64,000 nucleotides of DNA from NCBI GenBank assembly GCA_963737155.1, contig CAVTRN010000002.1, positions 3,014,662-3,078,661 of the forward strand. Reading direction: 5' to 3'. The notes beneath the pieces are model-generated. The model was not told the origin of the DNA, made no database searches, and saw nothing but the letters and a program-made list of their open reading frames with translations. Position 1 is the stretch's first letter, and every line of letters starts with the position of its first letter. The position numbers and the translations under genes were made by a program. Source of the stretch: Nitrospirota bacterium (GTDB lineage: Bacteria > Nitrospirota > UBA9217). This document shows, in pieces, positions 1,783 through 6,375 of this stretch.

Positions 1783-3675
1783 CTATTTGAGCTCCACAAC
1801 AACATCGTTCGCCGCTTTAAGCGAGGCATTCGATGTGAAGAAGAGCACTTGTGTTTTCGAACCGAGTGCACGCAGTACCTGACATGCGGCATGCTGCCGT
1901 GCCGGGTCAAAACCGGCAAGCGAGTCATCCAGAACAAAAGGCAACCGCAGTTTCCCCTCTAGCGCCTCCACCAGCCCGACTCTGAAGCAGAAGTAAACGA
2001 GCGCCTTCGTACCATGACTGAGGTCTTCGAATTTGACAACTGAATTATCCGTAGTATAGACGACCGTCGGGCCCTCATGATCGGCGAGCTCAATCCGCAC
2101 ATACCTGCTACTCGTGACGGCTGATAAATATTTCTGCGCCGCCACCTCGGCGGCAGGGACAAGCGTATCCATTTCGATACCGCTAATCCTGCTGGCAATG
2201 GCCAGTTCAGCAGGCCAGCCCGTTGAAACAGGGGGTGCCGCGTTTAATTTAACTGGCAATGCCGCGTCGCCGCGAACACCGGTCCACGCCGTCCCGGAGG
2301 ACGAGCACTCGGAATCCAGGCGTTCGATATTCTGCCTTATGCTGTAAGTATCCGCTTCATGATGGGAAACAGCCCTCGCTGCTGCTCCTAGCCGAAGAAC
2401 CTCGTCCTGCTGTTTCTGGCTCTGCTGCCGCAAGGATTCGGGTGTCAAGTTTCCGAGGATGCGTTTACGCGTCTCTTCCTGGTCTTGCAGCAGTGAACAC
2501 AAATAGCGGTAGTTCTCTGCTTTTTCCTTAAGCTCTCCTGTGGTTGCCGCACCAATGGAACGTATGTAGGACGCGACAAGAGCCCCGTCGTGCACAGCCT
2601 CTCGTTCTAGCTCAGTTAGTTCACTCTGAACGGTGAACGCTTCTTTTTTCACGGCCTTAAATTGCGCGTTCTTTCGCGAACCGTTGTACCAGGCCGTTGC
2701 CATGAGTATTAGAGAACCAATTATCCCTAGCGGAAACAAATAGGCATAAGCATCAGTCAATAAGTACATTCCAACAACTAGCGACAGAATGCCGAGCACC
2801 ACTCCGAGAAGAAACAATTTGTCAGTTACGAGGTTGGTCATCGGCATGCTTGACAGCCGCATGTTCAATCCTTCAAGCTCCCTGCGGAGGTCATCGGCAT
2901 CTGCCCCTTTCTGTGCCTGGTGGCGTTCGTGATCTTCGAGCACCTCGCTCAGATTCTCGGGGAGAACCTCGCATACATTGAGTTCGGCTAAAGAAGATTG
3001 AATCTCGGCGTTCTTTTTTTCCATCTCGTCAAGTGCGGCCAGTTTTTTATTGATTTCGTCCTGGGCGAGTTTGGCAGACTGGTACCGGTAGTCTGCATCC
3101 GCTGCCTCCTCTGCCAGACGCAGGGTCTCGCGAAGTTCGACGAGCCTTGACCGAGCAGCGGAATCTTCTGGCGCGGCCACCTGAGCGGCTGGTAACTGCT
3201 GTTTTTTTTCTGCAGCAATCGGTGCTCCGCACAATGAACCGTTGTGTAAATGCTCCCGCCGAATCACGAACACCTTCCCGTAGTCCTCCTCCGACAGGTC
3301 GGCCGTAAGCCCCCTCATGAATTTTGTCGCATTGTCCCAGTCCTTGTGAAGAAGGTTAAACTCTTTAGTAGCCGAATTATATTTGGAAAGGTTCACCGCG
3401 CTCTTCACGAAATCCTGGATCACGCGGTAGTACAGCCCGTCATCGGAGCATATCACCAGGGCACTCCGTGAAGCATCATGCGTGTATCTTGATTTGAGAG
3501 ATTCCCCATGCTCTGGCTGTGCGGATGGGAAAAGAAGGCGTTGCAGTGTGTCGACAGCTGTGGTTTTCCCTGATTCGTTGCCGGCTATAACCATGTTAAA
3601 ACCGTTCTCGAATCTCAGGCGCGCAAGTTCACGGATTCCGCGAATGCCCTGCATCACAAGCTCCACAAGGAACAT
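1783..3675 (-). CDS. Rad50/SbcC/YhaN-like ABC ATPase with coiled coils and two central TM helices
   Basis: N-terminal Walker A GNESGKTT; C-terminal LSHGTK signature and VLDD Walker B; long coiled coils; two hydrophobic segments at about aa 288-330. Confidence 0.75.
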   Translation of the reverse strand: MFLVELVMQGIRGIRELARLRFENGFNMVIAGNESGKTTAVDTLQRLLFPSAQPEHGESLKSRYTHDASRSALVICSDDGLYYRVIQDFVKSAVNLSKYNSATKEFNLLHKDWDNATKFMRGLTADLSEEDYGKVFVIRREHLHNGSLCGAPIAAEKKQQLPAAQVAAPEDSAARSRLVELRETLRLAEEAADADYRYQSAKLAQDEINKKLAALDEMEKKNAEIQSSLAELNVCEVLPENLSEVLEDHERHQAQKGADADDLRRELEGLNMRLSSMPMTNLVTDKLFLLGVVLGILSLVVGMYLLTDAYAYLFPLGIIGSLILMATAWYNGSRKNAQFKAVKKEAFTVQSELTELEREAVHDGALVASYIRSIGAATTGELKEKAENYRYLCSLLQDQEETRKRILGNLTPESLRQQSQKQQDEVLRLGAAARAVSHHEADTYSIRQNIERLDSECSSSGTAWTGVRGDAALPVKLNAAPPVSTGWPAELAIASRISGIEMDTLVPAAEVAAQKYLSAVTSSRYVRIELADHEGPTVVYTTDNSVVKFEDLSHGTKALVYFCFRVGLVEALEGKLRLPFVLDDSLAGFDPARQHAACQVLRALGSKTQVLFFTSNASLKAANDVVVELK

Positions 3676-3752: not shown

Positions 3753-5282
3753 CTACAGCATCGCGAGTGCATTCTTAAGCGCCTCCGCCTTCTGGAGCGT
3801 CTCCCGGTATTCCGCCGCGGGGTCGGAGTCGGCAACGATCCCGGCACCGACCTGCAGGTACGCAGTTCCGTCCTTTATGACAAAGGTCCTGATGATGATA
3901 TTCATATCCATATCGCCATCATTCGAAAAATAACCGATGGAGCCGGTATAAAGTCCGCGCGATACCGGTTCAAGTTCGTCGATGATCTCCATACACCGCA
4001 CCTTAGGCACTCCAGTTATCGTACCGCCAGGGAATACAGAACGTACAAGGTCGAAAGCATCCTTCCCCGGCGCAAGGTCACCACGAACATTGGAAACAAT
4101 ATGAATCACATGGGAATAGTCCTCGACGGCCATGATTTCATCGACCACAATCGACCCGTAAGAGCACACTTTTCCAAGATCATTCCGCTCTAGATCCAGA
4201 AGCATTATATGCTCCGCGCGCTCCTTCTCACTTGTCAGAAGCTCCGCGGAGAGCTCCCGCATTTCCGACTGATCGCTCCCTCTGCGGCGGGTGCCCGCGA
4301 TCGGCCGCGTATCGGCAACCCCTTCGCGCAACCGAATAAGCCGCTCCGGCGAGGAACTCGCAAGTTGGAGATCACCAAAATCAAGAAAAGCGGCGAATGG
4401 TGACGGGTTGACGGCGCGCAGTATTTTGTACAAGCTGAATGAGTCGGCCCCGTCGATAAACGCAGAGAACCGCTGGGACAAATTGGCCTGATAAATATCT
4501 CCTGCCGATATGTACTCTTTGCACCGGATGACCATGGCCTCAAACTCGGTCTGGCTCAAACCGGCTGAAAGCTCGAACTCTTTCACAGGCTCTCTTGCAT
4601 TCGGTAGCGGGGCGCTATCACGATGTGAAGCCGATTCCAGCCTGACTACGGTTGTCCGCAATCTTTCCCCAGCCTCATTAAAAAGCCGGTCCCACTGGTT
4701 TGGCTCAGGCCGTCTGAATCCCAGTTCCTGCTCACGCGCCCCGGGGTTCACGATCACCCAGGCCTTGTCCAGAATATGGTCAAAAGCAACCACGAGATCG
4801 ACAAAAATGAAGCAGGCTTCGGGAAAATCAACATCGACTGCTGCCCGGCGAGGCAGCTTTTCAAACTGGCGGGAGAAATCGTAAGAAAAGTATCCAACAG
4901 CGCCACCGGTAAAAGGGGGCAATCCGGCAATTCGGCTGGTCCTATAATTATTAAGCAACTCACGGAGTTTTTCCAGCGGCTTACGCTTCGTCATTGCCCG
5001 CCTGCCAAATTTCCTCTCGAGAGTTTTCGGTAGAATAAGTTCCACCGTTTCGCCGCGGGATTTAAAAATTAGATAAGGATCGGCAGTTACGAACGAATAT
5101 CTTCCGATCTTCTCGTTAACGCGTGCGCTTTCGAGCAGCACGGGACAACCGTCCTGACGCAGAGCTTCGAAGGCAGTTAACGGTGAAAGTCCAGGTATGC
5201 AGATTTCCGATGTGAGGGGCATGATAACGTCATGCCGGAGCTGCTCGAAAAATTCTTTTTTTGTGGGGTTTAGAATATACAT
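3753..5282 (-). CDS. chorismate-utilising enzyme, anthranilate synthase component I / ADC synthase (TrpE/PabB) family
   Basis: LLES, PPFTGGAVG, IYQANLSQR, SSPE, PIAGT, KERAEHIML, FPGGTITGVPK, GAGIVADS. Confidence 0.92.
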   Translation of the reverse strand: MYILNPTKKEFFEQLRHDVIMPLTSEICIPGLSPLTAFEALRQDGCPVLLESARVNEKIGRYSFVTADPYLIFKSRGETVELILPKTLERKFGRRAMTKRKPLEKLRELLNNYRTSRIAGLPPFTGGAVGYFSYDFSRQFEKLPRRAAVDVDFPEACFIFVDLVVAFDHILDKAWVIVNPGAREQELGFRRPEPNQWDRLFNEAGERLRTTVVRLESASHRDSAPLPNAREPVKEFELSAGLSQTEFEAMVIRCKEYISAGDIYQANLSQRFSAFIDGADSFSLYKILRAVNPSPFAAFLDFGDLQLASSSPERLIRLREGVADTRPIAGTRRRGSDQSEMRELSAELLTSEKERAEHIMLLDLERNDLGKVCSYGSIVVDEIMAVEDYSHVIHIVSNVRGDLAPGKDAFDLVRSVFPGGTITGVPKVRCMEIIDELEPVSRGLYTGSIGYFSNDGDMDMNIIIRTFVIKDGTAYLQVGAGIVADSDPAAEYRETLQKAEALKNALAML

Positions 5283-5296
5283 ACATAACCTACGAA

Positions 5297-5325
5297 ATTG
5301 TAAAGATAATTCGTCAGTTGGTCAA
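5297..5325 (-). promoter_or_regulatory. sigma70-type promoter of the TrpE/PabB gene
   Basis: TTGACC-N17-TACAAT on the minus strand; -10 ends 14 nt before ATG 5282. Confidence 0.65.
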
Positions 5326-5346
5326 GACAATTTTAGTAAAATAATT

Positions 5347-5419
5347 CTGCAACCGAGCGATAAATATGGTATAGTATCATTAGATTAACGCATTAAGAAG
5401 TGCATTAACGTTCTTTGAA
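5347..5419 (+). promoter_or_regulatory. extended -10 promoter plus boxA-like element upstream of the candidate ncRNA
   Basis: CTGCAA-N17-TATAGT (5347-5375) with TG at 5367-68; GTTCTTTGAA at 5410-5419. Confidence 0.5.
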
Positions 5420-5436
5420 GATACGGCAGTTTGCAT

Positions 5437-5757
5437 GGCGTTGCCGAACCAGCACCGTTAGGTGTACAGATGATAACCCGTTATAAAGGGGATCAAGCAC
5501 CGGAAATGATGGAGTGCCGAAGCCGGGAAGAGGACAGCAAGTTGAGCGGTCAGTCTCCCGATTGATACACAGGCATCCACAGGACGGAAGAGCCGAAACC
5601 CCTAAGTTGCGTGCGTACACGGGAAGAGGCGAGGAGGCCTTTCACACACGACGCTTCACAGGGTCTGCAAAGCGGAGCCGCAGAAGCAGGATGTACTTCC
5701 CGAAGTAGACACAGCTCAGCGGAATATCAAGACCGGTTCGGGGGCAACGCCTTTTTT
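5437..5757 (+). ncRNA. candidate large structured ncRNA (unassigned; GGA-rich, possibly CsrB/Rsm-like)
   Basis: GGCGTTGCCGAACC (5437-50) pairs with GGTTC-GGG-GGCAACGCC (5735-51), followed by T6; many internal helices; 12 GGA; no credible ORF. Confidence 0.65.
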
Positions 5758-5982
5758 ATTGCCTTTTACGTTTCAACCAACCAGAAAGGTTCTTCTCTTG
5801 CTGAAATTTATCAATACATCCCTTCCTCACTGTAATTGCAGCACTCTCCATAATTTCTTAAGACCCTTAGTAAAATAATGCATATCCCATCGATCTACCC
5901 CTCGACAAAAAGCAAATTTTATTTTAAACTGATCCCGTTTCCCGAATTCGCGATCTGATTACGTTTCAAAAGGGAGCTGGCC

Positions 5983-6375
5983 ATGAACCATGCCATTGAC
6001 GTACATATCTATTATGAGGATACCGATTGCGGCGGTGTGGTGTACTATGCCAACTATCTGCGCTACATGGAACGGGCACGAACCGAATATCTAGCGTCGC
6101 GAGGGTTCTCGGTAAAAAAACTCATGGACGAGGGAACAATCTTCATGGTGCTCCGGGTCGAGATCGACTATAAATCCCCTGCGCGGTATAGCGACACCAT
6201 CGAAATCGAGACAGGGGTAAGAGACGTGACCCGAGTGACCATGATGTTTGAGCATACCATGCGAGAAAAGATCTCGGGCCGGGTCTTTGTGGAATGCCGC
6301 GCAAAAGTTGTATATGTCGACAAGCACGGCAAGCCGAAACGCCTAGCCGAAGATTTCGTGGAAAAAATGAAATGA
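5983..6375 (+). CDS. ybgC: YbgC/FadM family acyl-CoA thioesterase
   Basis: YYEDTDCGGVVYYANYLRYMERARTE signature. Confidence 0.9.
   Translation: MNHAIDVHIYYEDTDCGGVVYYANYLRYMERARTEYLASRGFSVKKLMDEGTIFMVLRVEIDYKSPARYSDTIEIETGVRDVTRVTMMFEHTMREKISGRVFVECRAKVVYVDKHGKPKRLAEDFVEKMK

Follow-up and report, generated by a model that had tools for sequence, protein, structure and literature searches.

A structured noncoding RNA of about 315 nt founds a new family limited to one uncultivated Nitrospirota order

Few large bacterial RNAs with an intricate fold lack an assigned job, and earlier examples have proved to be ribozymes, cores of ribonucleoproteins (RNPs), or RNA-only machines. The closest described systems, the OLE, ROOL, GOLLD, and raiA motif RNAs, are each encoded by a stand-alone gene, span several hundred nucleotides, contain many covarying helices together with conserved unpaired stretches, occur within a narrow phylogenetic range, and have no assigned function. 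The locus described here, positions 5437-5757 on the plus strand of a 64-kb stretch of Nitrospirota DNA (the window, meaning the whole stretch analyzed), shares these properties. It is a genuine stand-alone gene for a structured noncoding RNA (ncRNA) of ~315 nt that founds a new family, without known relatives and limited to one uncultivated Nitrospirota order comprising a single family. The RNA differs from the systems above in being confined to that one order, in having a boxA leader, and in having a closing helix that abuts a U run; OLE, ROOL, and GOLLD are also larger. It is independently transcribed and highly structured, as an earlier note on this DNA had inferred, and it is most likely a stable trans-acting RNA with an rRNA-like biogenesis.

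Rfam 15 models gave no match at 5437-5757 when the whole window was scanned at gathering thresholds. At E≤10, positions 5200-6000 returned two junk hits only, neither of them within the element on the correct strand, and a search of 20 homologue loci at E≤1 returned two sub-threshold hits, one on the opposite strand and one just upstream of the RNA. Models of OLE, ROOL, GOLLD, raiA, and HEARO were unmatched on the window and, at E≤1, on the 20 homologue loci. The earlier note had seen no hallmarks of RNase P RNA, tmRNA, signal recognition particle (SRP) RNA, or 6S RNA in the element, and models for all four match elsewhere in the genome, with RNase P RNA (RF00010, 265 bits) at C1:305289-305658, SRP RNA at C1:780200-780300, and tmRNA (200 bits) at C1:1636748-1637100. 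Literature searches found no description of the RNA, and the word 'Nitrospir' does not occur in the portion consulted of a 50-genome ncRNA survey (PMC11109978).

The minimum free energy of the 321-nt stretch is -116.7 kcal/mol, compared with -95.4 ± 4.9 kcal/mol for 100 dinucleotide shuffles, none of which folded as well (z = -4.33). The RNA is assigned to the plus strand because G-U cells outnumber A-C cells on that reading of the homologue alignment (323 versus 168) and because the promoter and T run described below have that orientation. No open reading frame (ORF) is conserved; the longest ones vary in strand and location from one homologue to another, and of 485 indels among homologues, 451 have lengths other than a multiple of three.

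The secondary structure was evaluated on a MAFFT alignment of 59 homologues of the same class (type 1), made without structure information. The structure that was scored consists of the RNAalifold consensus plus one hand-added helix and contains 81 pairs. Standard pairs occupied 89.1% of cells, compared with 32-43% when the 3' partners were slid by 1-3 columns and a mean of 84.0% in shuffled alignments, none of 500 reaching the observed value. Both sides had changed in 52 of the 81 pairs (27-33 in the slid controls; shuffle mean 29.7, 0/500), and the covariation score was 0.223, as against 0.034-0.071 slid and 0.137 ± 0.004 shuffled (0/500).

The 5' and 3' ends of the RNA are joined by a closing helix, P1. 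Its 5' arm, GGCGUUGCCGAACC (5437-5450; this and all RNA segments below are on the plus strand), forms 14 pairs with 5735-5739 and 5743-5751 of the 3' arm, CGGUU-GGG-GGCAACGCC (5735-5751), across a 3-nt bulge, and 98% of its cells are paired. In P1, the outer 9 bp hardly vary and the inner 5 bp covary, with three inner pairs exhibiting covariation (e.g., A-U 42, G-C 14, U-A 2). P1 stacks on helices P2b and P3, with P2 as a side hairpin, and this rod opens into two multi-helix domains. P2 is the hairpin CACC-GUUA-GGUG (5453-5464), which is 96.6% paired with double changes in two of four pairs, and its loop in the divergent type-2 copies described below is GAGA or GAAA. The P2b 5' strand UGAUA (5471-5475) pairs with UAUCA (5725-5729), and its variants across genera are complementary: UGAUA/UAUCA, UGGUA/UACCA, UUUUAAAC/GUUUAAAA, and GUUGAC/GUUAAC. 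The P3 5' strand CCGUU (5478-5482) pairs with 5718-5722 (92.5% paired) and takes the form CCGUUG/CAACGG in type 2; the 3' strands of P3 and P2b together lie within 5718-5729.

Domain A (5487-5603) contains P4 (5487-5491/5599-5603), P5/P6 (5497-5502/5585-5593), and a P7-P8-P9 arm (5523-5560). Its helices (6-11) are 85-93% paired except for helix 9, at only 72%; the P7-P9 arm displays double changes in 10 of 14 pairs and is capped by a near-invariant AAGUUGA loop. Domain B (5605-5716) is composed of P10 (5605-5612/5709-5716), with double changes in six of seven pairs, the weaker P11 (5620-5623/5699-5702; 76% paired), a variable hairpin (5627-5640), and the P12 hairpin (5653-5687), which is 95-98% paired with double changes in 8 of 11 pairs. 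The near-invariant unpaired stretches include the AAGUUGA loop and CGGAAGAGCC, and the conserved hairpin loops are GNNA (P2), AAGUUGA (P9), and CAAAG (P12).

About half of the secondary structure drawn in the earlier note survives this analysis. Its paired ends, with a 14-bp closing helix bulged by 3 nt and followed by T6, are P1; its CACC/GGTG stem (5453-5464) is P2; its CGGGA/TCCCG stem, in the register C5524-G5560, is P7; and its AGGC-GAGGAG-GCCT hairpin (5627-5640) exists as a variable insert absent from many homologues. Covarying long-range helices replace much of the remainder. The TATCAA at 5725-5730, which the note had paired with TTGATA at 5562-5567, pairs instead with UGAUA at 5471-5475. 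In place of a local TGAT..CCC/GGG..ATCA stem, CCGUU (5478-5482) pairs with 5718-5722 and AGGGG (5487-5491) with CCCCU (5599-5603), and the long-range pairing of 5497-5502 with 5585-5593 displaces a proposed GCAC/GTGC stem. The TCTGC segment, which the note had paired with GCAGA at 5680-5684, pairs locally with 5672-5676. A CCCT/AGGG stem (5600-5663) is unsupported in the covariation analysis, and a TACTTC/GAAGTA stem finds no support beyond the genus. One further candidate, a pairing of GUUGA in the P9 loop with UCAAC at 5716-5720, was dropped; variants of the loop are mostly uncompensated and the site overlaps P3.

The element was found by DNA search of 41 related genomes in 22 of 24 from the same family and in none of 16 from other families. 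Alignments of the homologues start at window position 5437 and stop at 5757-5764; the conserved unit is therefore exactly the helix-closed stretch. A covariance model built from 20 sequences (R1) gave full-length matches in 61 of the 64 genomes of the order, including all 32 that are ≥90% complete and ≤5% contaminated; the three genomes without a match are 63-83% complete. In a phylum-wide sample, R1 matched 27 of 27 genomes in the family, and the 123 genomes of 21 other families yielded one weak partial match (19.5 bits, E = 0.005). Genomes carry between one and five copies. Pattern scans extended these results to public records. Among the first 100 loci checked of at least 120 matches listed for public genome contigs, three were real, all from records labeled Nitrospirota or Nitrospiria and scoring 262-324 bits. 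A gapped-pattern scan of metagenomes, again with at least 120 matches listed, contained 10 real loci (eight type 1 and two type 2), the others being chance matches in GC-rich coding DNA. None of 14 pattern matches in viral contigs was real, and distant-mode blastn against phage and plasmid collections gave no match.

The family includes a second, divergent paralogue class, type 2. Type-2 copies are full-length (294-322 nt), score 26-90 bits with R1, and keep the near-invariant P1 ends, GGCGUUGC...GCAACGCC, along with several internal motifs. The copy in the source genome is at C2:1770522-1770824, outside the window, which constitutes the final 64 kb of the 3,078,661-base contig C2, one of two contigs in the assembly. 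Conversely, a model derived from type-2 copies (R2) recognizes type 1 with 30-133 bits. Because the RNAalifold structure underlying it is poor, with 26 pairs, R2 behaves largely as a sequence profile. In the phylum sample it matched 26 of 27 genomes in the family versus 0 of 123 elsewhere. The type-2 promoter, TTGACA / TGTGGTATAnT, ends 6-9 nt before the first G, such that the RNA starts right at P1 without a leader, and 16 of 21 copies are followed 15-25 nt downstream by a separate GC-rich hairpin and T run. The flanks share nothing beyond ~90 nt upstream and ~75 nt downstream, and the neighboring genes are unrelated (prismane, peptidase, IS110 transposase, NmrA-like, ABC transporter, and others). 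Several type-2 promoters are preceded by a conserved ~60-nt block with a GTAC-N4-GTAC-like palindrome (…ctaaagtactaacaaggcgatcg…); this block may be an operator, which would imply that type 2 is regulated and type 1 is not. Multiple copies can also be clustered. Genome G015 contains a tandem trio (L183, C90 9986-11184) of one type-2-like and two type-1 copies, spaced by 83 and 163 nt, beside a PabB/TrpE-like gene, and genome G016 contains two type-1 copies 2.6 kb apart (L198, C67 2999-6237) that flank an ABC amino-acid transporter.

RNA libraries from several studies contain RNAs of relatives. None of the sequencing runs contains the source strain; 5-8% of the sampled words occur in 24 runs, which come from 15 studies and of which 23 are recorded as RNA. 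For four of these runs, two from freshwater and one each from peat and soil, contigs were aligned at ≥80% likeness. In all four metatranscriptomes, contigs from relatives cover 5437-5754, with summed k-mer depths ranging from tens to ~16,000. A 327-nt contig from run X3 extends from 5438 to 5741 and then enters Illumina adapter, and other contigs possess an unaligned leader before 5437 that includes the boxA-like TCTTTCAAAAA. The ends are thus compatible with 5437 and ~5754. The uncovered segments 5200-5415 and 5767-6000 are not counted as evidence, since the flanks of relatives are unalignable. The four checks that the earlier note had named speak for a new structured RNA: there is no Rfam hit, so it is not a known family; it folds better than chance; it is conserved throughout the order with compensatory changes among the 59 homologues; and RNA-library contigs of relatives cover exactly the element.

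The rRNA operon leader offers a close parallel to the type-1 transcription unit, for in both a boxA-like motif lies just upstream of the 5' strand of a long-range helix, whose distant arms enclose a structured RNA that is untranslated and processed. The two differ in that the enclosed RNA here measures 315 nt and has no rRNA model match, and in that the long-range helix is retained in the mature product, with a U run behind it. A candidate extended -10 element, TGGTATAGT (5367-5375, plus strand), predicts a transcription start at ~5382-5384, and homologues keep aTGtGGTATAnT or an extended -10 at a distance of 43-72 nt before the RNA. The resulting leader of ~54 nt (5383-5436) would be absent from the mature RNA, as both the homology and the RNA contigs begin at 5437/5438. 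The only conserved block within the leader is the boxA-like motif GTTCTTTGAAGA (5410-5421), which resembles the gamma-proteobacterial boxA consensus GYTCTTTAANA (PMC5725501). Its core is identical to that of the organism's own motif in the 16S leader (GGTCTTTGAAAAC) and also recurs in the 16S-23S spacer (TGTTCTTTGACAAC), so by sequence the type-1 unit appears to carry in its 5' leader a boxA like that of its own rRNA leader. The motif lies 22-36 nt upstream of P1 in 54 of 59 type-1 homologues and in none of 22 type-2 copies. At the other end, P1 is followed directly by T6 (5752-5757, plus strand), and helix and run together can be read as an intrinsic terminator; a run of at least five T within 8 nt after P1 occurs in 54 of 59 type-1 homologues versus 2 of 22 type-2 copies. 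A candidate leader-trailer pairing of GGCAGU (5425-5430) with AUUGCC (5758-5763) was set aside, as it is not conserved in the relative G003.

These features suggest how the type-1 RNA would be made. It would be transcribed from its own extended -10 promoter with the ~54-nt leader, in which the boxA-like motif, by analogy with rRNA operons, may recruit NusB/NusE. Nus recruitment would protect the untranslated transcript and keep the P1 5' arm near the polymerase until the 3' arm emerges ~285 nt later, whereupon the long-range helix and U run would terminate transcription and the leader would be trimmed back to the base of P1. For rRNA, it has been proposed that formation of the leader-trailer helix is promoted when boxA is tethered to NusB (PMC10250234). 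The pattern of type 1 (boxA plus a P1-U terminator) versus type 2 (no leader and a separate terminator) leads us to infer a link between boxA and the formation of the long-range helix.

Further GTTCTTTGACAA sites are found at C1:440958(-), C2:1573880(-), C1:1693055, C2:1953542(-), and C2:1913022; they resemble the 16S-23S spacer boxA (…GTTCTTTGACAAnnGAATAGC…), and may mark other Nus-dependent transcripts. The boxA motif scan also met dispersed repeats with identical 45-nt contexts, one in seven copies and two others in three each (e.g., C2:636664, 1023395, 2069824, 2142845, 2156077(-), 2061191(-), and 187442(-)), which are probably insertion sequences or other repeat elements.

Upstream of the RNA is a divergent four-gene operon encoding a TrpE/PabB-like chorismate-binding enzyme, a Rad50/SbcC-like ATPase, thymidylate kinase (tmk), and the DNA polymerase III delta' subunit (holB); a second TrpE/PabB-like gene is present at C2:2587989. 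The PabB/TrpE-like neighbor is kept at 45 of 46 type-1 loci fetched with flanks, and the exception, L016, is a second copy located 2.6 kb from a first that does adjoin the PabB/TrpE-like gene. The ATPase (window 1783-3675, minus strand; 630 aa) belongs to the ABC class, containing AAA_23 and SMC_N domains with no NCBIfam match. Of the 27 family genomes, 26 encode close homologues (45-78% identity), which in all 24 cases of a shared contig lie ~1.4-3.5 kb from the RNA; other Nitrospirota families have only distant relatives (21-27% identity). Because the gene resides in a housekeeping operon, this linkage is a lead and not evidence of a partner. Downstream, a YbgC-like 4HBT thioesterase (5983) and a TrmN6-like methyltransferase follow in many, but not all, genera.

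With respect to function, we propose that the RNA would serve as the scaffold of a lineage-specific RNP, its near-invariant terminal helix acting as a protein-recognition and stability element. A terminal helix of this kind is seen in the Ro60-bound Y RNAs, where the bulged helix formed by the 5' and 3' ends is likewise the most invariant part. The RNA here is about three times larger than a Y RNA and matches no Rfam Y RNA model, and the 100%-complete source genome contains no Ro60/TROVE domain (PF05731). The scaffold function, with recognition through the invariant terminal helix, is a guess that we hold at somewhat short of an even chance. The account as a whole, combining a trans-acting RNA, rRNA-like making, and an RNP scaffold, we regard as moderately probable.

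Several observations weigh against that account. The minus strand of the element folds equally well (z = -4.07), and energy alone therefore does not assign the strand. The library contigs report presence only, and not level, strand, starts, or ends; joints in metagenome assemblies at low likeness are unreliable; and alignment would fail over the relatives' flanks regardless, so that the bounded contig cover is weak evidence. The boxA-like 10-mer is commonplace in the genome (72 copies versus 37 expected), so the argument from boxA rests on its conserved position. Five of the 59 type-1 copies lack the motif there and mostly retain the T run, which implies that boxA is not required for a P1 terminator. 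The second copy of the G016 pair also has no boxA-like motif. The synteny of type 1 may be inherited and not functional, given that the neighbors form a housekeeping operon, and analysis of the neighbors of type-1 and type-2 loci for a partner protein identified none, those of type 2 being variable. Finally, the GNRA loop of type-2 P2, like the compact fold with its several domains, would be as fitting for a ribozyme or RNA-only assembly as for an RNP.

That alternative, in which the RNA is catalytic or forms an RNA-only homo-oligomer in the manner of ROOL, GOLLD, or OLE and is not a protein scaffold, ranks next after the RNP scaffold, although we consider it unlikely. Its size, many helices, and two domains are in keeping with such a role, as are the near-invariant unpaired AAGUUGA loop and CGGAAGAGCC and the high representation in RNA libraries; the GNRA-type P2 loop in type 2 (GAGA or GAAA) suggests tertiary docking. 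RNA-only complexes have been reported for large ornate RNAs of bacteria (PMC12286853). On the other hand, no substrate, cleavage site, or oligomer interface is readable from the sequence, and no Rfam ribozyme or ornate-RNA model matches.

A circular form may be considered alongside these possibilities because of head-to-tail contigs and because the source genome encodes RtcB. In the soil run, X8, and in none of the other three, two contigs lead from the 3' end head-to-tail into 5437 across the letters 'AG'; the joints are 5754>5437, and 5707 followed by 50 unaligned letters >5437. These could represent a circular RNA, template switching by reverse transcriptase, or an unseen tandem arrangement. 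The combined scheme of a new functional RNA class (ribozyme, self-assembling, or RNP core) that undergoes rRNA-like maturation with a boxA-tethered terminator helix and has its ends circularized in vivo strikes us as doubtful.

The position of P1 directly against the U run would also fit a cis-acting leader, i.e., a riboswitch or attenuator of the ybgC-like thioesterase-methyltransferase operon in which a ligand-stabilized P1 and the U run constitute a switchable terminator. The 4HBT thioesterase gene lies downstream of the RNA in the same orientation, and in many genera it occupies that place. However, 225 nt and a separate promoter-like site intervene between the T run and the ORF, and no 4HBT gene is present within 1.5 kb at L014, L015, L017-L020, L173, L175, and L179, which represent several genera. 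The surroundings of type-2 copies are unrelated, and these copies bring a promoter and a terminator of their own; the RNA contigs stop at P1, with the leader probably trimmed. The constant downstream gene and continuing transcript of a riboswitch are likewise not seen; downstream genes differ across genera, and the RNA has its own terminator. We judge a cis-acting role to be quite improbable.

Regulators that bind RNA polymerase, of the 6S or Ms1 type, resemble the present RNA in being abundant and stable, with paired 5' and 3' ends and with paralogues driven by different promoters. Ms1 is ~300 nt, similar to the RNA here, and Bacillus has two paralogues, 6S-1 and 6S-2, as there are two classes here. 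The source genome nevertheless has a canonical 6S gene (97.6 bits) at C2:1131951-1132132, the locus gives no RF00013 match even at E≤10, and the fold branches into two domains instead of forming a single rod with a central bubble. Membership in this group is very improbable.

The element could in principle be a DNA-level repeat resembling a miniature inverted-repeat transposable element, with the P1 arms as terminal inverted repeats, or else a divergent housekeeping RNA. One to five copies per genome and the varied type-2 contexts, one of them beside an IS110 transposase, would be in line with a mobile repeat. Against this, type-1 copies throughout the order have a fixed position beside the pabB/trpE-like gene, the internal helices show covariation together with surplus G-U, both the promoter and the terminator are conserved, RNA contigs cover the element, and phage and plasmid collections contain no match; RNase P RNA, SRP RNA, 6S RNA, and tmRNA are all present elsewhere in the genome. 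Both versions are exceedingly improbable.

The remaining idea, half of the earlier note's either/or, is a Csr/Rsm-type sponge titrating CsrA by repeated GGA, to which we give almost no credence: the RNA is GGA-rich like CsrB/RsmZ, with the motif counts as the note had them (12 GGA versus 3 TCC, GGAAGAG at 5526, 5586, and 5622, and CAGGATG at 5687), but its 3' end is formed by a closing helix where those RNAs have a local terminator hairpin, its conserved GGA sequences are in helix strands and internal loops and not in hairpin loops, its only GGA hairpin loop (5631-5636) is in the variable insert missing from many homologues, the one CsrC match (18.9 bits against a threshold of 61) is outside the RNA, and the reading fails because the 100%-complete genome has no csrA, with no CsrA domain (PF02599) detected by a search whose controls in E. 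coli, B. subtilis, and T. maritima were positive. The other half of that proposal, a new large ncRNA class, stands.

As an addition to the large ornate RNAs of bacteria, this candidate is unusually well supported, combining order-wide conservation, dense covariation, two paralogue classes, and strong representation in soil, peat, and freshwater RNA libraries. In metatranscriptomes of habitats rich in Nitrospirota it corresponds to an abundant, unannotated transcript that is currently left unassigned. The type-1 unit raises the question of whether a boxA/Nus tether can let a helix spanning 285 nt act as an intrinsic terminator, and type 2, with no boxA and a separate terminator hairpin, provides a natural, built-in comparison.

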